Shown here in pieces: positions 6,230-34,505 of a stretch of 64,000 bases of DNA (position 1 is the first letter of the stretch; every line of letters begins with the position of its first letter). The translations under genes were made by a program, and so were the position numbers. The notes under the pieces are model-generated. The model was not told the origin of the DNA. It saw only the letters and a program-made list of their open reading frames with translations, and did not search any database. Source of the stretch: Sarea resinae (lineage: Eukaryota); the NCBI GenBank assembly GCA_026026165.1, contig JAPEUD010000099.1:1-64000 (forward strand), written 5' to 3'.

Positions 6230-7302
6230 ACGAACTCTGAAAAAGTGGCTCCTGTAAGTGGAACGATGAAGATGAGCGAATGGTGGGAACGGAGAAGCTG
6301 CGTGTTAGTCTGATTGCTTCCGGACGATTTCTATCCTCTTTTTCCTGCCCTTGTTTTGCTCTCTGTTCCTCGCATTGCTCTGTTATTTCCCTCCTTCCTC
6401 CTCGTCATCCTCATCTCTTGTTACTGTTTTTATTTTGCTCTTTGCATCTGGTCTCATGATCCACCACGCACGTCACGCAATTTATGAGCCCATATGAGTC
6501 TTGTTTTACGGTCCTTTACGAGTCGAACAGATGAATGATTCGATGAAAGCCTTGTCAGGCAACGAAGAATGATGTAATGATATTTTCTCACGCATGTACT
6601 TTTTTCTTATTCTCTTCATAGCTCAGAAAAACTCAGGGAATTTTGACTTCAAAAGCAAGAGAATGAAACTCACAATAGTAAAACAAATATCTAAGTCGAA
6701 CTGACCTGGCCTAGATATTCTTCGAGCCTTATCTACTCGTGACAGTTAATCTATTGCCTACCTTACGTACCTACTTGCTAGAGATCCCTGAGAGGTAGCA
6801 CCCGGAATAGCTACAGTCGCTAAGCCCATCCAGAGATAAATCATTGGGAGCTCAGAGCCTGAGAGGTGTTTGCGTTGTGTGCATTGAAGCTCTACGCAAG
6901 AGTCCCCTCTTCGAGTGGCACACAGAGCAGCTCAAGCCTTAGGGTTACTAAGTCATGGAGGGACGGCCTTAAGCCTCCGACCGGCCTCATTCTACTGAGA
7001 CGTTCGACAAGTAACGTCTATACGTCCCATGACTGCCTACCTTACCTCACCTTCCCTTCGCTTGTTTGATATCGAAGATGATCTTCAAGGTCATAAGGCT
7101 CAAAGTTGCCTTATTCGTTGATAGGTAGCGAGAACAGATACCATTTTCGGCCAGAGCTTAGTCTCTCAGAGTGCAGCAATCGTTCAGGAAAGCTCCAGGG
7201 TTCGTTCAGGGATTGGCAGCCCATACTCTAGGTAGGTGAGGTGCTGATGGCCACTTCAGGCGACCTCAGAGGCGCGCACCTCACCTCAGCTTCCAATTGA
7301 AT

Positions 7303-8120
7303 AGTTCTGGACTTCTATCGTCGAACGTCTATGAGATTGCCTTCTTTTGCCTTCTTATTCCGCCAATCAACCGATGCGTGGATGGCATCCAATAGATCGT
7401 CTCATCCGATCTGTGTCCAGTTACATTAACCAACCAGATAGTTTTGGACTTTTATCGTTGAACGTCTAGGGAATTGCCTTGTTTGCCTTCGTTTGCCTTC
7501 TTCTTTCACAGACTTATCAATCCGTGGATGACAGCCAATAGACCATCCCGTCCAATGGGCGTCCAGTTGCATCGACCAACCAGATAGTTTTCGGCATTCA
7601 TCGTCGAACGTCTATGAAATCGCCTTCTTTTGCCTTCTTCTTCCACCGACTAATCGATGCGTGGACAGCATCCAATAGATCCTCTCATCCGACCTGCGTC
7701 CAGTGGCATGGACCAACCAGATAGTTTTGGACTTTTATCGTTGAACGTCTAAGGAATTGCCTTATTGCCTTCTTTGCCTTCTTCTTTCACAGGCTGACCG
7801 ATCCGTGAATGACATCAAATAGACCATCCCATCCGATTGGCATCCAGTTGCATCGGCCAACCAGATAGTTTTGGACATTTATCGTCGAACGTCTACAAGT
7901 TTGCCTTAATTCGCCTTCTTCGTCGACGGTCTACCTGGCCAATCACATCCACTGCAACCTTCCCATGGGCCGGCAGTAGTCGCTGACAAGACCTCGAGGG
8001 CCTGTCCGGAAGCTGCGGGTTGCTTCTCTGCCATGTACGAAGTAGGCGACATCCATGGATCAGAATTGCTGCATGGCTGCTTCCAATCAAGTAATTTTGG
8101 ACTTTTATCGTCGAACGTCT
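7303..8120 (+). repeat. Six direct copies of a 28-bp motif (consensus AGTTTTGGACTTTTATCGTCGAACGTCT) in diverged 137-226 bp units
   Basis: Motif starts at 7303, 7440, 7586, 7723, 7867 and 8093. Each is followed by (T/C)GCCTT..(T/C)GCCTTC, and copies 2-5 are preceded by CCAACCAGAT. Confidence 0.95.
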
Positions 8121-8381
8121 CTGAAAACGATTGCCTTCTTTGCCTTCTTGGTTCACGGACTAGCCAATGACACATACCAACATCTCTGCATCCAGGTGCA
8201 TCGACCACTCATGTTTCAGTCCGTGGGAACAATCAAAGGTTCAGTGTCAAGCCGTGTGCATACCTTCGGTGTCCCACGATAATGCCTGATGAGAACAGAG
8301 GGCCAATGTAAAGGGGCGATTTCATTGGGCGTTGGTGGAGGCTAAGGCATAGGGAGCTGCAGCTTTCCGTTGCATATCCAT

Positions 8382-9285
8382 AGACGTTCGACGATAAATG
8401 TCCAAAACTCCTCTCAGCAGTCGGTGGAAAGCAGAACGTTACTCCAAGGACTGGCACCCGACGATGATCCATGCCAATACGCAGTACAGTGATCAATGCA
8501 AATCGCAAAGAGGAGCGAGGGACCTCTATGGCATCAGACGAGGCTAAGGGAGGCAGGACTGCGGCTTTCCGTTGCATATCCAGAGACGTTCGACGATAAA
8601 TGTCGAAAACTCCTCTTAGCAGTCGGTGGATAGAAGAAGAACGTCACTCTAGAAATGGCATCTGACGAGAAATGCCTGTAAACGGCCAGTACAGGGATCA
8701 ACGCAAAGCACCAAGGGCAGGGAACGGCTCGAGGAGGCTAAGGCAAAGAGGGCTGCAGCTTCCCGTCGCATATCCAGAGACGTTCGACGATATTTGTCCA
8801 AAACACATCTTAGCTGTCGATCGATCGAAGAGGAGAATCAGGCGCTGCCTCTTCGATTGGATGCCCAGATCCCCGACAATCCCTCAGGACACTTCTACTG
8901 GTGGAAGGAAAAGTGATCAAATCGGTCGCCTTTTTTCAGGCGATTGACCAACATGAAGGTAGTACACAGTAGACCGGGATGCTGATAGTGCGCTTGTCGC
9001 CTTCATCCATGGAGGCGTCCGATCATGACTGTCGAAGATGATTGGGGGGAGTCGGAGAAGCGACGATGGCCGTGGTTGGTTCATGCAGCTTGATGCAGAT
9101 GGATTGATCTATGCGATTGGTTAGCACATGAACGGAACAAGGCAAACAGGGCAATTTTGTGTAGACGTTCGACGAAAAAAGTCCAAAACTTCATGATTGG
9201 AACCCGTGCCAGCAGCTTCCAATCAAAGACGTGGGTTGAGAGGTGAGCAGATTATGGAGACGTTCGACGATAAATGTCGAAAACT
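8382..9285 (-). repeat. Five inverted copies of the same 28-bp motif (AGACGTTCGACGATAAATGTC(C/G)AAAACT on the + strand)
   Basis: Starts at 8382, 8584, 8778, 9163 and 9258. The first three lie in ~200-bp units sharing GAGGCTAAGG...GC(A/G)GCTT(T/C)CCGT(T/C)GCATATCCA. Confidence 0.95.
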
Positions 9286-10670
9286 ACGTGAGAGGCTGAA
9301 TCCTGACCGGGGGAAAGAGAGGAATCTCCAGATGATGTGAACGCCTCATGCATATGCTACCGGAAGAGGGTAGGTAGACAACGGAGGCTGGGGGTGGGGA
9401 GCGGAGGGTGTGCAGGTGATTCAGGTCGAATGGAAATGTGATGTGATCAAAGCTGTTGCCTTTTTCTGGATTCCATTCGTGCATGTCCGTTGATAGCATG
9501 TGTCAAGATACTGGAAGGTTAGGGCCATGGTGGAATGTTGGGACCCAAGGACATTCGTACTGAGAGTCCCGTGTCCTATTGTTACTCAAACGAGTCTCTT
9601 AACAGCACTCAGACTGTAGTAAGATACGGAGTGCCTACTAGGTATCTTATTTGGCTGCTCGACGAAATGGTTTGAACCTTTGCTAATAAGATGGCTTCCA
9701 CCAAGATCTTCGGACCACGATAATTTGATGCCACGAAATCTGTTAGCTACAATATCTGGAAATCGGGTTCGGAGGAAGGAGCTGAGTCTGTACGAGTGAG
9801 GAATGATAATTGCGATCCATGGCTCAATTTGACATACCACCGGCGAAATTTGCGCGCAACCTAAAGATCCCTGACGCGAAAGTGCGCTCCACGATCTCTC
9901 GAGCCAGATTACACACCGATAGGAGCTCGCAACCCTAGAGGGGACAGCCTCTTATCTCTTCAGACCAGGACCCTTGGAGAATTTATACACAGTACAGCAG
10001 CATCCTTATATTACCTAGGTACTGGAAATTACAGGAGGAATTAAATCTCTCTAAGTATAACTGGTTCCTACTTCAGGAAGGAGTCTATACAGTGTGCCCT
10101 GACATAGAAGAAGTTAGTGGGTTAAAGGAGAAGGTAGCAGACACCCTATTTACCGCATTAAATTCCTCCTAGGATCTAGTTTTCATCGAGTCATCATGAT
10201 AAGTTGAATGAGAGTATGCTAAGGTAGATTATTAGTGTGATCTAGGCAGATAGACAGTACACTAAGTCTTAGCCACTTTTTGAAAATTTTCGAAGAAGCC
10301 GAGCAAAAGAGATAGATGTCATGTACAACATATTTGAATTTCAATTTATTTTCTATTTTATTTGTTGAGTTATGCGGTGATAAAGTCTATACCTCAGGTT
10401 ATAGTGGTCGCGAGGCTCCGATCGTGCCAACTTTTGACCTAGTACGATAGGTACCTGAATAGCTTGGGTAGGCCCTACCTTAGCTGACGACCTTTCTCTC
10501 CTACATCATAGAATAACCTTCTTTCACTTCTCTCACCTAGATCACCCAGATTACAAATTGATCTTAGCCGGCCCAAAGTTTACCTCAGACTTCTCTCACC
10601 TCTCTCCTTCGGGATCGCAAGACATACTAAGCCGGTAAGAAAAGTTAGCCTCAGAAAACCCCAAAGAAAG

Positions 10671-18425: not shown

Positions 18426-20591
<2,166 letters not shown>

Positions 20592-21421
20592 TCAATTACG
20601 AGCCAGAATGCCAGAGAACGGGGCTGGTGCGTAGAGCAGGTTCACAGGCCGCAATCGGAGCCGGGGGATGAAGAGTCGATAAGGTACCTCTTGCGAGATT
20701 GACTAGATGCTTGGAGCCTTGCAGGGGCGGGCGGGCGGGGTCAGAAAGCGCAGAAATGAAGATCAATATTGAGGTATCGCAATGGGGATGAGAATGCTAT
20801 TCGAGAGGGCGAATACGGGTGCTCAGAAGATTTTATGAGAATGGTTCGGACTGCAGGCTTCTTCTTGTGGACACGATTACTCCCTACGGAGATCCTCCAG
20901 ACTGCGTTTCGGCCGCGTCAAGAGTTACGAAAAGTCGGCACCTAAGTTCCTAGTGGGCTTGGCCGGTGTCATTACAGTTTCGCAAAGGTCACTAGGCCCC
21001 ACATATAATAATCCGCAAAAGAAATATGGTAACTGTTCATTATTGCTGTGCTCGCAATTTCGAAGTCTCATGTTTTATTGTAACAAAGGAAATTGCGAGA
21101 TGATTCGTTGACTGTCGCGTTCAAATGTAGTACAAATACATCCATGGATGCTTCTGTCACTGCCGCACCTAACGCACTCGGGCTTACAGTCGATCCCAAT
21201 ATGGCTGTAACAATTACAAATGTCCTTTGACCGCGAGGTGACCCGGAAGTTCTAGTTCGAGATTTCATCGGACTTCTATTTACAAAAGATGAGATTTATG
21301 ATACGCCCCAAACACCATGCTCAATTTTCAACCATGGCCCAAATGTCGTGACGCCAGAGGTATGCCCCATGATGATGCTCGTAGAAATGGAGGGAAACAA
21401 AACAAGTGCAAAAAGTCTAGG

Positions 21422-22451
21422 CTATGCCTCGATTTTCAGACCCGATCCTAGAGCATCTTGAACCGCCTGCTCCTGGGTTTTAAGCTCCTGCTCCTTCAGA
21501 AATTGAGCGTACTTCGAGCGCGAGTTGTGAATACCACACTCCTCCTTCTTCCGGCCCTTCCAGCGACCAGCTCGTTCATCTTCGCCTTCTTTTATTGGTC
21601 TGACATGTCGTTAGAAAATGAGAAATATTGATTGAAGGAGGATCACTTACGAAGTGGAATGCCAGTCCCCTACACTCTTGTAGCCCCTATCAAGAAGCTC
21701 ATTGTACGGAACGTTGTATGCCCTGATGTAGTCCTGAACCTGCTTGAAGCTCCAATTGGCAAGCGGGTTCACTTTGATCAAGCCTGCTTCGTCGACTTCG
21801 ATGATGTCCAGATCTCCACGCTTCCCTCCTTGACTTCTTCTTCGGCCCGTCAACACAGCACTGACCTGCAGGTCAGAGTAGGCCCTCTGTGCAGGTTCGA
21901 CCTTGGCCACCCAGTCATAGAGCTCCTCATTCTTCTCCCATAACCTCTCGCCGTGCTTCTCGGCGAATTCTCTAGCGTTCTCCACGCCTTGCGGCTTGTA
22001 GATGTGCAAATTCGTATGTGGATATCGCTTTTGGACACGGTCAACGAGAGCCAGGGTCTCATCAAAATGATGTAAGGTGTCCAAGAATATCAGATCGACG
22101 CGAGAGGACCATGGGGATTGAAGTCGAGACAGCATATCCACAGTCACGAGACCAGTCAGGCCGAATGCAGTTGTCTGGTACAAGGATGGCAAAGTGGTGA
22201 TGCACCATCTCAGTACATCTGTTCGGATTATCAGTTGATGATCTGGACATAGTATATCATGGCGCAGATGCTGCTTGAGGGATCTCACCTTCTGGCTCAA
22301 GGTTTTGCAATTGCTGGTTGAGAAACTTTAGATGCGGCTTCGTGAAGGAAACTTCCGGGATATTAGATTCGCTCGAGCAGCCACTGGCATAACCAGATTC
22401 AACATCTCTGGTAGACATGGTTTCGCTTTCGTATTCCTGTGAGACACCCAT
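21422..22451 (-). CDS. MET16: Phosphoadenosine phosphosulfate (PAPS) reductase, 3 exons
   Basis: YQTTAFGLTGLV, LIFLDTLHHFDET, LYDWVAKVEP, VLTGRRRSQG, KVNPLANW, YNELLDRGYKSVGDWHST, and a last exon with ERAGRWKG..ECGIH. Confidence 0.96.
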
Positions 22452-25725: not shown

Positions 25726-26295
25726 AGGACGCTTTTGATCTTGCTTCTGTACTTTTGAGCCAATTAAAGGGAGCGAACGAAGAAAAGATGGTTTCATATC
25801 AATGTCCATGATGCCAAAACTGAGGGAGAAACAATAGACGTGAAGTGGGCAGACGTCTTCCAACGTTGGTCCCAGTAATGACAGATAAATAAAATGGCTG
25901 GTTCGTTTGCTAAGGTAAGCCCTTCACTGTGAATTAAAGTTGAAAGTAAAATGTGCTGCTAATTTATGTGGACATTTTCTTCCATGATCCACAGATCCAT
26001 GGATACAGCTTCGATGGGAAGTTATGAAGTAAAAGGTAAAAGCTGCGCTAGTGACCACCAAAGGCCGCCGTAGTAGCTGCGGTTGCCCTAGATCTTTGCC
26101 TCAGTATACTCAGACCTCGCTTGGCAGGTGGTCCGCTGCGCACGGACCACTATTGCCTAAATAGGCAATCCACCAGCCAGAGGTCTGAGGCAATTTCTCT
26201 AATTTTCTACGTCAGCAGCGGCTAATTTGTATAGAGTCAGCAATTATCAGCAAGCATTAATTTCAAACTATAAGATATCTGCAACTACAACGCCT

Positions 26296-29056
26296 ATAGC
26301 AGTGATAGCTATATTATCTGAAAGCTACACTTCTGTTCTATAATTAATTACTATATCTGCTTCTAGGACTAATCCTAACGTGCAGAGGAAGCGCTAGCAG
26401 ACAACAACTATTTCTGCACTAATATCTGCGCTAACCACGCTACAGACATCCTCTTCTGCATTGCTAACCCTTATATTAGCGCTGTTAGCATCGAATACTA
26501 ATTAGTCTCTGCTAGAAGCGTTAGCAGATAAGGTTATACCTAGCAGAATAAGTGCAGAGGCTAAGCTCTACTATATTATCGCTAAGTTGTAGGAGTGGCA
26601 GGTGACGCCTTTAACTCTTATAACGTTCTAGCTAGAATATATAAAGGATAATTAAAACTTCTGCTAAGCTAAGCAAAGGAAAGACCTTATTAGATTAGTC
26701 CTTAGATTTAATAATATTAACAATCTTCTGTTAGAAGCAGATAAAGGCCTAGCTATAGTAATAGACAGCAGTATTAGCCTTATCCGCGGCGAATTAAACT
26801 AGCTATAGAATTGTTGTCAGCTGTTTAGCTAATACAGTAAAGACTTAGACTTTAAGACACTTAATATAACTCGCTCTGCAGGCAACATCTTAGAGATAGC
26901 GCCTATGTTATCACGACTAATTAGCAGTGCAGCTGAATTGTAGTATGCAGCGAAACATTAGCAGAGGACCTATTTAGCAGACGCTAGACAACTTGTTATA
27001 ACAGCATCTATATTCTGTCTTAGCTACGCTAAATCGTTAATGAATTGCTTTGCCTGCCTACTAGGATTATATCTATAAGACTCTAGGTTGACACAGCGTG
27101 CGCTAAGCACGCTCTATAGCCTAGGTCTAGTGGATAGATATCGCATAATAGACATGCAGAAACAGCAGATATTAGATTAGAGTAAGAAACGTGTCCTCTA
27201 AACGCTACTATCAGCTAGGGCTAACTAAACAAAGGCAGATATCTGCTTAGCCGCGCAGACATAGGACTACACTATTATATATAACAACTTTAAATGGCAT
27301 GTAAAAACATAGCATCAAACAGTTAGTTATACTAGAACGCTCTACTTATACACCACTAGAAAACTCCTACGCAGACAATGTTTACTAAGCAAAGGACTAA
27401 CACAAGACATGTTCTACTCTAATGTTTGTGCTAATATAATGACTCTTCTAGAAGCAGATAGAAATTGAGTCGATAAAACGCAGGCGCAGATATCAACGCA
27501 TTTAGTTGCTAGTGCTATTCGCACAGCATGTCTAGACGTTGTTAATGCTATATTCGCAGCAGATATTAATGCTTTCCTGCAAATGCCAGCTGTTAACGTT
27601 CTTCTGCCCTTGCAAATAGAGCATATAACTCTTAGACTAATCACTAAATCTAAGGGCTCTATAGCAGGCATATATTAGGTGTTAGACAACATCTTTGCTA
27701 GCTAACTAGGGAAGGATACAGTCGACTTTAAAAACAAGTTAGTGTTAGTATTTAGTGACTAGAAAACAACAGCGCTAATCTGCTCTTATTAGCTTAAGCG
27801 ATTAGAGGCAGCAGATATACATAATCGACTTAATTAGATATTATTAGTACCTAGCCTCTTTCACTTGCAGATAAACCTACTAGCATTGATTGTTAGATCG
27901 CACTACAGCAGACAAAGCAGTCTCAACTAATACTCAACGTTATATTCGCATATAAATTACCTTAGTCGTCAGAATATACCCGCAGATAAAGCGCTGTTTC
28001 ACTACTAGCAAGAGCTTGTTTAACATAGCTTTCAGGCCAGAATAGTTGCACTATTTATATCACAACTGTCTGTTTTATATAGACAACAGAGTAAAGGCTA
28101 ACTAGATAAGATGCTCTGCAAAATGACTCCTACAAACTTTCTCGCTTAGGTAGAGAATATCTGCAAAACTGTCTTCTCTGCTGCTAGCTATTAGGAGTTA
28201 GCTTAATATAAGAAGGATATACATAGTAGAGATAGAGATATAGCAGGTGCTAGTTGAAAGCAGAATTATAAGCAGCAGCATCTCCTGCATGATTCTAAGT
28301 ATTTCAATCACATCTGCTTTCTGCACTATGTAGAAACATACTTAACCTTAAGGCATGCTATTAAATTCGCTGATATTGGTTTGCTTTGCCGCGCGATTAC
28401 CTGTAGCTGTCTGTATTTTAGCAGAAGTGGTTCGCATAACTATTCGCAGGAGATAATCTAATTTTAGCAGCTAATATTAACGCTAACGTGTGATCTGTGT
28501 CTGCAGGAGGCTATACTTGCGAATAGTCTTGTCAGCAACTACAACAAACTAGGTGCCTTTATAGAAGTCGATTAGATAAACAAGCTGTTAAATCTAGAAT
28601 TAAAGACTATCTTATAGACTAAAGGCAATTCAACGTTCGATATAACAGCTTTATTTAAATAGTTAGTGCTGCTGACTAGCTATCTTACTCTGCTCTATAC
28701 TGAGTTTAAGTTTGCATTTAGCGAGCAGACAAACACTTCTTATACTAACAAATCTGCTGCTACAGATATTAGGAGTCTTGCAGATATTATTGCCTAAGAC
28801 TCTATAATCTGCTGCAAGGATAGGATGTCTGTATATATAGCTCTAGGATTGTTGCAATTAGGTGTTATACAACTAGCTTAGAAGGGGCTGCCTACGCTTG
28901 CTAGCAGATATATAGATCTAGATAAGGAGGGTATTTCTAATATAGACTAACAGATAGTAGAGGTGTTAGTAGGCCTTGATATAAGTATATCTTAGCGGCT
29001 TTATTATGATTTGTATAATAGCTGACTTTATTGTAGGCACTAGATACCTGATTAGT
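26296..29056 (+). pseudogene. Academ-type (DUF6589-like) transposase with many RIP stop codons; boundaries approximate
   Basis: Translated relics: LLVPSLFHLQINLL (~27841), FNHICFLHYVETYLTLRHAIKFADIGLL..YF..SGSHNYSQE (~28303-28450), AILANSLV..FIEVD..NKLLNLELK (~28509-28605). Confidence 0.75.
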
Positions 29057-29174
29057 ATAGCGGACGAACGCATGATTATACCACTTCCTAGTTATATACT
29101 AAATCATGATTGCAATTTAATTCTATCTACTATTGTGTGCCTAACTAGCTAGCTGTTAGCTTAGCCACGTCAGA

Positions 29175-30840
29175 CTAACAGCCTATACAGCAGATAATGT
29201 TTAGGATCTTAAGGATGTCACTTGCTATACGCGACTGCCTTGCTCTTAGATCTGTAATGTCTGCTTGCAAATCAGCTATTAAGTCATTGCTAATAGCGGC
29301 TGCAGCAGCAGAAGGTCCTGCAGACGCAGAAGAAGGTGCTGTTGTAGCGACAGTATGTCCTGCAGACGCAGACAAAGCGGCTAGCTAATAAGAAGGACGT
29401 TAGCAGGGCTAGGTTTCAGCAAGAGGTGAGTCGCTAGCTGTGTCTTTATCTAGGTCATTATTATTAACAGCTTCCTTAGTCTTCTGTTGCTAAACAATTC
29501 GTTAGCTAACCTAGTCTAATATACATATGCATTAAACATACCTTCTATAGCCTTTTGCCACTGTCTAACGCATTATTCTTGCGCTTTTTGCCTTTATTAA
29601 GACATAAAGAGGTGCAGACAGCCTTCTTAATATGTCAGCTATAGCGGATATTCACTATAACATACTACTGCTATAGCGGATATAGCGGATAGATATACTA
29701 GAGGAGTATTATTATTATTCGCATTGATTACACACAGTTTTCTAGCCTAGCAACACCTTGCGCAACTGTCTCCTAGCTTAACTATATGCTTCTTAACTTC
29801 TTAGCAGTAGACCTTGCAAGGGATGCCTTTTTTAACACATTGTTTGCACTTGTAGGTTAGCTCTATGCCCTAGTATAGGTCGTTGAATATTAAATCAGCA
29901 TAGGTATAGGCTTTCTAGCGAGTCTCCTTTAGCCTATTCTAAACAGCGTCTAAACACGTCAGCTAGTCTAGTTTAGTTAGACGTGCAATAAACCACTGTT
30001 TATTATAAAATTAGCATTGCGCACAGTTCTCTATAGCGGCAGATAATTAGGCCGCGGCGGCAGACAGGCTAGCAGCAAACAGGTTAGCGGCAGACAGTTA
30101 GGCGGCGGCAGACGATTAGGCGATAGCAGCAAACAGCTTATCTTCAAACAATTTCAAAGCTTTAGCATTGTTATTATCCTCTAAGACAAACCCTAAAGAC
30201 TAGTCTAACGCATACTCTGCTATCCCTTTACCTTTGTCCTTTAGCCCTATATCTAAGTTATCTTTATCTAATGATTTGTCTGCTAACTCTTTACCTTTAT
30301 CCTTTAGTAGCGCTGTACCTAATTCACCTTTGTTAGAGGGTTTGTCTGCTGCTGCCCTTTTAGTATATTGTTTAATTTCTGCACGTGGCGGCAGGCGGAT
30401 TAGGAAGGGATATTCCGACTAATACTTGATTGCAGGGGCAGCAGACGACTTAGCAGAGGCAGCAGACAAAACAGCAGCGGCAGATAAGACAGCAGCGGCG
30501 GCAGATAAGACAGCAGCGGCAGCAGAGACAGCAGCGGCAGCAGACTTAGCAGCAGCAGCAGACTTAGTCCTAATTAGAAGTCAGTTATTATATCTGATAT
30601 AATAAAGAAAAGTTTAAGATCAGGTTAGTTAAACAGTTAAAACTTACATGACTAATGTTAAGGTTTCCTCTCTAATCAGACAAAAGTTATTAGCAGCTAA
30701 CATACTATAAAGTTGCTAGTAAGAGGTTAGAGTTAGTTAGAAGTGTTAACTTACACTAGCCTTAAAGCACCTTTAGTACTATTCGCAACGTTTAACAGAT
30801 ATTGCTCTAATACACTGTTCTTAGCGAAGTTATCAGCTAT
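29175..30840 (-). pseudogene. Third transposon gene: intron-containing, Ala-rich repeats, Zn(II)2Cys6-like motif, C-terminal coiled coil
   Basis: C-x2-C-x6-C-x17-C-x2-C-x6-C at 29732-29848. Two GTAAGT...CTAAC...AG introns lie at ~30595-30755, and the C-terminus reads IADLQADITDLRARQSRI. Boundaries approximate. Confidence 0.55.
30435..30566. repeat. GCAGCGGCAGA(TAAG/CTT)-type minisatellite inside the transposon
   Basis: Repeated gcagcggcagataagaca / gcagcagacttag units of 18-21 bp; they encode Ala-rich repeats on the minus strand. Confidence 0.8.
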
Positions 30841-31118
30841 AATAATAGCAAGGATAATATAGATGTTAGTTATCAATAATTGACAGGCTGTAGCAGAGTT
30901 ATTAAACAAAAGAGGTGCGATGTTAACAATGTTAATAAGGTTAACAAGGTGATAAGGTTGATAATATTTGCAGGTTAGCTATATAAAGAAGTGGTTCTTT
31001 GTTTAAACAAAGAAATCGCTAGTCAACTATTCACTTGATTTATTAGGTGTACTTGTTTGCTAGATGCAGAAGTTGATAGCAGGTAGAGGTGAGTATTTAT
31101 ATCTACCTTAGCTAGAGG

Positions 31119-33539
31119 CTAATGTCTCTTATGTGATCTATTAGGTGTGTCTAACAGAGTGTCAACTTGTAGTATATGACGCGGATCAATAACAGGTGGC
31201 AAATCAGCTAGCTGACTAGATATATCAGATGCAGATAATAAGGACAAGTTAGCTACAGCTAGTATTAAGGCTGCAGGTTGCATAGTTAAATCCTCTGCGT
31301 ATATACAGGCTAACAACGCACTTAATTCAGACTAGCTAAGATCACTACCAGCCTATTCTGCATATCTTAGCAACGAACCTACATTATAAATACTAGTCTT
31401 CTAAACGCATATCTGCTGTATAACGTCCTCTAATATTATACATCCTGCTACAAGGACCTAGGTCATGTCCTTGTACTTTGTCTGTGTCTGCTCTAACATC
31501 TACTACTTAATCTAAACAGCTATATATTTGTTAGAGTAGCTGGATCGCGGCGTAATACCTGAGTTTAGCGGTTAAAAGTATAGCTTCCTAGATAAAACTA
31601 GCTCTAGGTTGCAGTTTAAACAGCAACGTCTGTGTAGAACAAGTTCCTTAGTGTTTTTGTCTGCTAGCTGCTTATTAAACGCCTGCATAAATATTGCCTG
31701 CAAGCAGCCTTTCTCCTCGTTCGCAAAATTGTATAGCAGAGGAGGAAGCTCTGCTCGCTGTTTGTATACATCTTTGTGCTTGACTTTCACAGGCTAAGGA
31801 CCTATTTCAGCTAGTACAGCAATATGCAACCCCTCTAGACTTAGCTCTTGCATTATCTGCCGTTTAATATCTGTGTTAGCTGCGTTGTCATCTGATAATG
31901 CAACAGAGAAGACAGCAGAATCAACACTTATACTGTTAGAGTCTGCGCTTTTATATGCCTGCTCTTGACTTAATAGACTTAGCTAAGACAAGGAAGTTGA
32001 TGTCTGCGCGGCAGATGTCTGTGTGCTAGATATCTGCGATCTTAACTGCTAGCTATTATTACTACCTGCTTACCTTGCCCTAGTCTGCACCCTAGGACCT
32101 TTACACTACTTATTAATAAAAAAAATTGCCTCTCCTTTCTAACTAGCACCTTGTGCTGCCTGACTAAATCGTTGCTATACTAAGCTTAGAAGGCGATCAC
32201 AAAAGATGCTAAGATAAACCACCTGCTTAATATCTACGACGTCTGCACCCTAGGCAACTGCATCTAAACAGAGCAACACTTTTATTCTTAACTGCAGCTG
32301 TGAAAACTCTGCCTATATCTGCTCTTTGTCTTGCTTTGCAAGGGTAGCGTAGTACATATCAACTGTGTGCATTGCTAACCGCGCTAAATATCTGCGGTCT
32401 CTTAGCCACTAACAGACCTTGTTGCAGGCTTCTATAAGCTGCTGTTTACTGTTAATAAATATCGCTGTCTTTAGGATCTGCTACAGAGTTAGACAGTAAC
32501 GTCGTTTAGTATAGCTACTATTAGCAGACAGCACAGGCGTCTTAGATTCTATAGCTAGCGCGGCTAATGCAAGAGATTCTAGCCTAACCGCGGCAGATAT
32601 TCTAATGTTCGCAGATATAGTTAGCTAGGACCTAGCTATATCTGCAGTGTCCTTAGCACAGCCCTTAATAACAAAGTATAGGCAGTCAAATGACTTCTTA
32701 TCACTGCAGCAGATATATTCGCAGATAATAGCTAGCTCTAGTCGATTAATTAAGGTGCAGATCAATTTGACGTCGTTATTAAAGCAAGTAAGCTAGTATA
32801 CCTTTGTAAAGGTGTTGTTATCTAGTGTTGCAGTGCAAGCAAACTAGGGCTTGTTTCCTAGAAATCTGCAGAGGATACTAAGCTTAGCATAGGAGCTGCA
32901 AAAGGAGGACTAGTTTGAAATTAGATGAACCTTATCTAGCACTACAAGCGCTATCTGCTCCTGCAATTGTATGTCTTTCTATATCCGCTTAAAATTTGTG
33001 CTAACTGCAAGCTCTAGTGAGATTAGAATGTGTGTATATTTGCAATTGCAGATATCCTTAAGGAGTTAGTTGTTATTGTTCTAACCTGTTATATAAACAG
33101 GCTTTATACTTGTAAGCTCCTTTATCTGCATAGTCTGCTTATCTCTAATCTTATTTAGCAGAAGAATAACAATAACAATAGCGTTGCAGACTAGACACAG
33201 AATTGACTGCATAATTATACTCTTACTAAACGAAGTTTTAGCAACTAGAAAGAGATCTTTCTTAGTGTATATCAGCTAGCAGAGCGCCTGCAGCTGACCT
33301 ATCCTTCTGCTATATAGGTATATCGCGCAGATAATTGCATTAATTGCTGCAAGCTATGCCTATTTGTCTGTATAGTAGAGCTCTTAAAGTCTGTCTTGCA
33401 AGGCCTATATTTGACGCTCTTTATCTGTAGTAAGGTTGCTATATGCTATTGCTTCTGCTTGTAAACGTTCTTTATCTGCAGAGAGTAGCTGCAGTAGGCA
33501 GACATATTTGCCCTAGTTAGAGCGTCTTCTTTAAGGCAT
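31119..33539 (-). pseudogene. RecQ-like superfamily 2 helicase of the transposon, RIP-mutated; 3' boundary approximate
   Basis: Walker A relic DLFLVAKTSFSKSIIMQ (~33210-33260), DExH relic LVVLDKVHLISN (~32915-32950), CLTAIL (motif III), VDMYYA, VLLCLDAVA*GADVVDIKQVV (motif V) and QRFSQAAQG (motif VI). Confidence 0.8.
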
Positions 33540-34505
33540 CTAGCAAATATAAGTGATCTAATAAGGAGACTATAGCTTTTTCTAACCTTATATAATTCTC
33601 TAAAGTCGTTACAGCTGATATAGTGCAGGCGTTGTTGTGATATTAAGGTGGAAATAATCGTCCTATAGTAAATCTACTGCTTATTAGTGCAAACAGTTAT
33701 TTTCACTTTAAGGCATAAGATAATCTAATTAACTGCACCTGTTACAATACAATTAGGACTATTTAATAGCCCTGTTAAAACTGTATAGATAATTAGATTT
33801 CTATAGCCGCAGCAGATGTGGTTGTAGATATATGCTGATAAACTTATTCGCTATACAGATGAAAAATCTGGTTTTGCTGCAAATTTTCAGAAAAATTGCC
33901 TCAGACCACATTTTCGTGGATTACCCTTTCGGGAATGCTTAGTCATTCATCCGAACGGGCCGGATGTTAATCCGGATCCACGTGATGTGGTCTGAGTCTA
34001 CTGAGGCAACCTAGATCTTCAGCCCCGCCAGCTCTTCAGCTGTCCCTCGGCCCCTCGACCGCGCCGCAACTGCTTTGACGAGCCATTCCAAGCATTCCGA
34101 AAGTTCCCCGACTAAAGTCAAACCCTTGCTTATACGGGACAAAAGCATGAGATGTTTTTTATAACTCAGCGATTTCTAACCGAACATACATATGCCTGAG
34201 CTCGAATGCTGGTCTTGTCTTCGCTGCTCGTGACCCTATACCTTAGATTCAACCCTATTAGCGTGCTGGATCACCGCGTCTCCAGCGCGACTATTGTCGA
34301 AGCCTATATCGCTCACCGACGCCCCAGCTGACCTTCCGGTCTCTTAATCACACGCAGTATTCCGGGATATTATAAGAATCTGTTGAAGAGTTGAGAAACG
34401 ATACCGGGCCAGAAATTTTACCCGGGGCCGGGTTCTCACATCCCGAAGCGGATTCAACATTGCAAATCTGGTACATTGTACGGATCCGAATAACAACAAA
34501 ATATC

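Follow-up and report, generated by a model that had tools for sequence, protein, structure and literature searches.

Conserved fold-back units at both ends of a helicase-encoding transposon family, most likely AcademH, in Sarea resinae

A transposon in the genome of Sarea resinae raises the question of why the end of a DNA element should be able to fold into a branched hairpin, and whether such a fold serves the element or has arisen in passing. The element lies in a stretch of 64,000 nucleotides (contig JAPEUD010000099.1 of assembly GCA_026026165.1, positions 1 to 64,000), the whole of which is here called the window, and an initial annotation had described its left terminus as a T-shaped hairpin reminiscent of parvovirus ends. 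The matter touches on a wider one, namely why some DDE transposons encode a helicase; the literature, in the excerpts available, ties the helicase only to the length of the target-site duplication. We report, with high confidence, that the hairpin is a real and conserved structural feature, and suggest that a fold conserved at a set distance from the site of cutting is a candidate helicase substrate.

The element, its copies and its genes

The transposon spans positions 26096-34009 of the window (7,914 bp) as an AT-rich block killed by RIP, and is bordered by a 9-bp target-site duplication, CCTAGATCT, at 26087-26095 with an exact copy at 34010-34018 (both plus strand). Like AcademH it has terminal inverted repeats, here about 21 bp long at both ends; the left repeat (26096-26116, plus strand; TTGC-CTCAG-TATA-CTCAG-ACC) matches the right one (33989-34009, minus strand) at 20 of 21 bases, and each end carries three CTCAG motifs, one of them inverted. 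The 25.5-Mb genome has at least 16 matching places for the left end and at least 16 for the right, and the 12 complete copies comprise full-length members of three subfamilies, A, B and C, with a mutual identity of 58-69% (RIP included), together with one gene-less copy of 965 bp that retains a 9-bp duplication and both fold-back units. The 9-bp duplication is exact in 13 of the 14 two-ended copies tested in the genome (8/9 bases in the remaining one) and in both of the metagenome elements tested.

One copy, L033, is nearly RIP-free, with 4 in-frame stops in the 905 codons read of its transposase region and one more near the end. A domain scan covering 13 of its 56 listed ORFs assigned a DUF6589 protein to the plus strand and, to the minus strand, a helicase with DEAD, Helicase_C and RecQ_Zn_bind matches as well as a small frame with a weak PF00172 match (E 2.2e-4). 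Remains of all three genes were located in the window using tblastn from L033: a RIP-destroyed transposase gene at 26347-29004 (plus strand; DUF6589, with a predicted DDE fold modelled on the relative P0002), in which a PF20231 match (27454-28722, E 1.2e-45) contains 19 stops, a RIP-destroyed RecQ-like superfamily 2 helicase gene at 31599-33320 (minus strand), and a remnant of the small third gene with a Zn2Cys6-like motif at 29723-30028 (minus strand). The region between the two main genes (29723-30560) holds this Zn2Cys6-like frame and short tandem repeats, which give acidic repeats when read in L033. The family does encode the helicase that the initial annotation had ascribed to the element; that this helicase acts on the fold is a proposal.

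The transposase model of P0002, a close relative, was built from 128 sequences (pLDDT 90.9), and its best matches among 48,161 chains were Hermes (Z 10.3; 276 aligned, rmsd 5.7) and the P element (Z 10.2; 286 aligned, rmsd 4.5), with further matches to integrases and RAG1. Foldseek likewise ranked Hermes first, with no row at E 0.001; an earlier model (9 sequences, pLDDT 55) gave no usable structural match, and a sequence search of the PDB returned no match. Judged from the P0002 model, the transposase is a DDE enzyme with a hAT/P/RAG-type fold.

The AcademH lineage of the Academ superfamily was reportedly defined by Kojima in 2020 (in Mob DNA). The AcademH helicase is RecQ-like. According to excerpts of one study, AcademH has target duplications of 9 or 10 bp and encodes a helicase, and AcademX has duplications of 3 or 4 bp and encodes a nuclease (PMC10045372). 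Our element resembles AcademH, as portrayed in excerpts of PMC10045372 and PMC10799480, in its DDE transposase and helicase, its 9-bp duplications and its low copy number in an ascomycete. Given a predicted DDE transposase, a RecQ-like helicase and a 9-bp duplication, the family is therefore most likely AcademH. A literature search for DUF6589 returned one paper, apparently on another topic.

Some copies are rearranged. Among subfamilies A, B and C and the copies L043 and L050 the ends are mosaic: in A the left end resembles that of B and the right end that of C, and in L050 the left end is C-like and the right end B-like, which suggests either end swapping or uneven constraint. At L048:2600-2750 (contig C137) a right-end unit is joined almost directly, without interior, to an inverted and degenerate piece of the left-end arms. 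At L049:5033-5179 (contig C90) a right-type end unit of 147 bp stands alone with a terminus-like repeat on either side; 6 of 9 flanking bases are alike and all three differences are transitions, and it is possibly an end unit that once moved alone. On contig C118 one copy (L045-L046-L051) is split by an 11.8-kb insertion, probably an LTR retrotransposon, with 400-bp direct repeats that are 97% identical; contig C11 repeats a stretch of this copy and its flank, perhaps as an assembly duplication.

Elsewhere in the window, a cluster of direct and inverted repeats, built around the core GACGTTCGACGATAAATGTCCAAAACT with periods of about 140 and 200 bp, occupies 6997-9300 and is single copy in the genome except for 28-32-bp matches on contigs C59 and C109. 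Adjoining ATP sulfurylase and PAPS reductase genes lie on the minus strand at 19081-22327, about 4 kb to the left of the element.

Folding of the two ends

The pairings that the initial annotation had drawn for the left end all agree with the sequence, as do their coordinates. Specifically, CTCAGACCTC (26109-26118) pairs with GAGGTCTGAG (26180-26189) and TGGCAGGTGG (26122-26131) with CCACCAGCCA (26170-26179, one mismatch), and inside them lie the hairpins GTGGTCCG/CGGACCAC (26128-26150) and ATTGCCTA/TAGGCAAT (26152-26169). Both had been called perfect hairpins and both do pair, but the ATTGCCTA arm differs from the drawing in that its halves are only 2 nt apart and it therefore folds as 7 bp with a 4-nt loop. 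The left fold-back unit (26109-26189) consists of a trunk (26109-26127 with 26170-26189) closed by an inner CTGAG, arm 1 (8-bp stem and 7-nt loop) and arm 2, the ATTGCCTA arm. The inverted inner copy of the terminal repeat is also present, as GGTCTGAGGCAA at 26182-26193 (TTGCCTCAGACC on the minus strand).

Computed as DNA, the left end folds at -28.1 kcal/mol compared with -12.5 ± 2.6 kcal/mol for 200 shuffles, none of which was as good (z -6.06), and its minus strand gives a z of -6.22. Two registers compete at this end: the fold either begins 13 nt inside the terminus or includes the outermost 9 nt at the cost of a 9-nt bulge. The minimum free energy structure makes up just 1.9% of the ensemble. 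At 26126 the A is found in the copy in the window alone, both sister copies having G.

The initial annotation had confined the feature to the left terminus, but the right end (33896-34009) folds into a stronger T of different sequence, at -35.5 kcal/mol (z -8.88; about -8.9 on both strands). Its fold-back unit (33896-33996) comprises an inner repeat copy (33896-33907), a trunk (33900-33921 with 33976-33996), a long arm (33924-33959) and a short arm (33960-33975), and the interior alone gives a z of -4.9. The same register is conserved at both ends: the first 13 nt of the terminal inverted repeat (those of the left repeat included) are unpaired, the second CTCAG pairs with the inner CTGAG, and a trunk (16-20 bp in this genome) and two arms follow. 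The shuffle statistics at both ends and the other copies led us to reject a chance origin of the fold.

Conservation of pairing among copies and distant relatives

Between subfamilies the left units are 85-97% identical and the next 200 bp only 51-67%. The stems of the left arms are invariant across 7 distinct left ends (one gap cell in arm 1), and changes sit in the loops, that of arm 2 reading AAAT, AACT or AATT. Because the stems never vary, the left ends of this genome have no measurable covariation; they show conservation, not covariation. The right ends of subfamily B are 66-68% identical to those of A and C, with 18-24% transversions, which equals the next 200 bp, and both versions keep the trunk and both arms as a T (interior z -4.6 and -4.9), one arm also keeping an ACTAAG loop. 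Double-sided changes were found in 9 of 28 right-end consensus pairs (8 sequences). When the trunk is left out, the interior still beats shuffles in each of the six end types of this genome, left and right (0-1 of 200 as good). The fold is lost in one heavily RIP-mutated copy (z -1.2) and weak in one old solo unit (z -1.6).

Distant relatives were sought by a metagenome scan using a 9-protein alignment, which gave at least 54 loci; among the 54 listed, 14 have a helicase match, most of the remaining loci being too short. The end motif TTRYCTCAG-N3/4-CTCAG or its fold occurs in 24 of the 27 listed loci with at least 1 kb upstream (counting one contig that starts inside the unit, and L075, where the end is 2.8 kb away and maybe that of another element), and L054, L060 and L085 have neither in the at least 1 kb upstream examined. 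The fold-back stems of these relatives are unrelated in sequence to those of the window element. When loci were scanned without use of the motif, the best 110-nt fold coincided with the terminus in 11 of 19, and 4 of the 8 misses have less than 1 kb upstream.

The ends fall into 11 transposase groups that are at most 60% identical to each other, values which RIP lowers. In all 11 groups the fold starts 12-13 nt from the end; the units measure 77-116 nt, trunks are 16-22 bp, two arms are usual, and across families only the CTGAG core of the inner copy is kept. The T is common among ends, not universal: 13 of 19 end types form it on both strands, and by group a two-armed T is seen on both strands in 8 of 11, on one strand in 1, and plain hairpins only in 2. 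Unbranched are the right ends of L058 and L065 as well as L072, L075, L091 and L097.

Trunk positions +4 to +8 are Watson-Crick paired in 63 of 90 cells (18 end types) compared with 28 ± 4.7 when the 3' arms are swapped, and none of 10,000 swaps reaches 63 (maximum 48). This statistic is too favourable, since the inner boundary was placed where pairing is greatest and 5 of the 18 rows come from one genome; heavily RIP-mutated duplicates, three ends found only by the blind scan and four motif matches that do not close (L056 x, L094 x, L075 right and L060 x) were left out. In 15 of 19 end types the adjoining stretch, taken at the same length, scores close to zero (z above -2). Pairs in the units are Watson-Crick nearly throughout, with G-T pairs making up 11 of 586 and 23 of 612 on the two strands. 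The ends of related elements are structured, and the double-sided changes and the trunk pairing beyond the arm-swap level show compensatory changes of the kind that the initial annotation proposed to look for. The T topology itself was rejected as a statistic, as 701 of 950 controls with the trunk kept and the middle shuffled branch too; branching is cheap in controls and therefore only the stability of the arms is informative. None of 50 controls (which also shuffle the upper trunk) has arms as stable in 14 of 19 types, and for 3 of 12 T-shaped types arm stability is marginal (11-18 of 200). What the ends conserve is the pairing, not the letters.

In a family of about 5 kb (L089, L090 and L094) the left and right units, each a T, have the same sequence and therefore form long true inverted repeats. 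At L064:538-700 the left end is tandem: a partial end of 57 nt extends as far as the tip of arm 2, the full terminus restarts there at a TTA microhomology, and a 9-bp duplication flanks the outer start. The arrangement resembles a template switch at the tip of a hairpin. A rule by which left and right units differ by one helical turn was not reproduced with the measure used here, because unit lengths differ by 14-17 nt in this genome, 3 nt in L064, 28 nt in L058 and 0-1 nt in L089, L090 and L094.

RIP leaves the ends nearly untouched; in three subfamily B copies the first 100 nt have 1 mutation compared with 46.3 expected on the left and 1 compared with 44.1 on the right. We rejected this sparing as proof of selection because RIP fades near repeat borders, within about 150 bp according to excerpts of one report (10.1101/344036), and because the controls failed: the edges of retroelements yielded mixed profiles and no usable pairs, LTR copies lay inside other repeats, and the genome has just one DDE_1 element. 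Comparison of L033 with L041, L042 and the C118 copy shows that this fungus mutates CpG by RIP at rates (0.28-0.75) as high as those for CpA (0.27-0.76), with CC and CT at most 0.16. The end motif and the fold mark elements of this kind even where RIP has erased the genes.

Readings of the fold and known systems

On balance we lean towards the reading that each end is a cis-acting signal which transposition reads in folded form, as single-stranded or cruciform DNA, probably once the helicase has unwound it. Pairing that is free of sequence constraint and held at a fixed offset from the cut site argues that the end becomes single-stranded or extruded at some step, and the Watson-Crick pairs, together with the similar folding of both strands, suggest DNA rather than RNA.

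Rather unlikely, in our judgement, is that the folds are a by-product: excision or gap repair would expose the ends, which would snap back and be copied through template switching, so that palindromes regenerate without having a job. Template switching can also create compensated palindromes, and the multi-base compensated swaps between subfamilies resemble such switches, as do the rearrangements whose junctions lie at arms or at their tips (L064, L048); arm number and length also vary freely. A single snap-back, however, yields one perfect hairpin, whereas the trunk here is bulged and bears two separate arms; mismatches in the trunk are shared between subfamilies, and the start of the fold stays at its 12-13-nt offset in 11 transposase groups. 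Moreover, the by-product would itself need a single-stranded end.

We regard it as improbable that the end is read as duplex, that is, as a mini-element with inward and outward transposase sites, like the terminal repeats of KolobokP, whose palindromes bind dimeric proteins. The three CTCAG motifs per end, one inverted, would fit this, and so would the solo 147-bp unit on C90 with its 6/9 flanking bases alike, but the latter is a single old case without an exact duplication. Sites for proteins should also keep their sequence, whereas trunks and arms are unrelated between families, and the bases past the inner CTGAG rebuild a full terminus in just 3 of 19 types.

AAV-like rolling-hairpin replication, in which the T primes synthesis and the element is copied as a linear single strand, is unlikely for this element, and we give it very little credence. 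It would account for the shape and size of the T (77-116 nt), for the ability of the 3' end of subfamilies A and B to pair with the inner copy, and for the identical units at both ends of the family of L089, L090 and L094. However, among assembled copies the arms have one orientation, with no flip/flop, in all 16 left ends listed in the genome (two of which share flanks and maybe represent one locus), within every right-end subfamily and in 10 left ends of one metagenome family, and primer pairing is possible in 3 of 19 end types. No HUH (Rep) nickase domain was found in the 13 of 56 listed ORFs of L033 that were scanned, the helicase belongs to superfamily 2 and not superfamily 3, the 9-bp duplications are clean, and the terminal pattern had 0 matches in the viral collection, as also in the prokaryote collection. 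We discount action of the fold in RNA, e.g. in read-through transcripts, for although stability slightly favours the outward strand in 15 of 19 types (p 0.02, with rows that are not independent) and this strand has more G-T pairs (23 vs 11), both strands fold almost equally, G-T pairs stay below 4%, in relatives some 1.0-1.2 kb separate the unit from the transposase match downstream, and no Rfam family matches the ends.

For an end read as folded DNA, a nick-unwind-fold-cut path is possible and is put forward tentatively as a whole. The transposase would nick the 3' ends, the element's helicase, the simplest source of single strands, would unwind about 100 bp (RecQ helicases move 3' to 5'), and each strand would snap back, rebuilding a CTCAG/CTGAG duplex with the outer 12-13 nt left single-stranded. 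The strand to be joined would then present a 3' tail of 12-13 nt on a duplex, as at the cleaved end of the P element, whose ends carry long 3' overhangs; the other strand would form a 5' flap to be cut by a host flap nuclease, a job possibly done in AcademX by its own XPG-like nuclease. The T cap may stop the helicase or lock the open state. Donor footprints with a repeat stub of at least 9 nt on both sides had 0 matches in the genome, the assembly of which may be incomplete, and the assembled contigs of two sequencing runs, from which absence cannot be shown, contained no empty site and no strand-change joint.

The lineage could, as a similarly tentative generalisation, be one of DDE transposons whose ends work only after a RecQ-like helicase has melted them and the strands have refolded into T-capped duplexes with a 12-13-nt tail, the folds being bound and released. 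If true, cut-and-paste chemistry would be joined to folded single-strand recognition, which to our knowledge is known only for HUH and tyrosine enzymes, and the AcademH helicase would be explained. The genome offers both a near-intact copy (L033) and a reporter-sized one (the 965-bp gene-less copy).

No folded Academ ends are described in the excerpts seen of PMC10045372, PMC5751038, PMC10799480, PMC12730594, PMC9587614 and 10.1101/344036; within this limited literature search folded ends may be new for Academ, though the paper defining AcademH, its supplements and Repbase could mention them. The likeness to parvovirus/AAV ends noted by the initial annotation holds for the shape, a two-armed T of approximately 100 nt on a trunk, found at either end of an element that encodes a helicase, and fails for flip/flop, for the 3' primer and for the catalytic chemistry, which is predicted to be that of a DDE fold like hAT and P. 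AAV and parvovirus ends are T-shaped folds of about 100 nt with flip/flop isomers and a paired 3' primer, served by an HUH nickase with a superfamily 3 helicase; in our element, by contrast, the fold starts 12-13 nt inside the end, a paired 3' primer is usually missing, and the left and right units are unlike in most families.

KolobokH has a TTAA-type target duplication of 4 bp, and membership in that group was rejected for our element, where duplications of 9 bp with variable sequence are found instead. Excerpts of one study describe KolobokP end units with inverted repeats of their own and a RecQ helicase encoded by fungal KolobokH (PMC9587614). Judged from those excerpts, the units of KolobokP are long direct repeats whereas those of our element are inverted, about 100 nt long and self-folding, and our element differs from KolobokH in having its helicase as a separate gene on the opposite strand. 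In integron attC sites and the end hairpins of IS200/IS605, short fixed motifs likewise go with a variable interior conserved as structure. Those bacterial sites are used as folded single strands by tyrosine recombinases or HUH enzymes, and differ from our element, whose enzyme has a predicted hAT/P/RAG-type DDE fold. Finally, the Drosophila P element and Hermes (hAT) have the transposases that best match the P0002 model in structure; hAT and RAG make hairpins on flanking DNA, and P-element ends are partly single-stranded, with neither a fold-back unit nor a helicase of their own.
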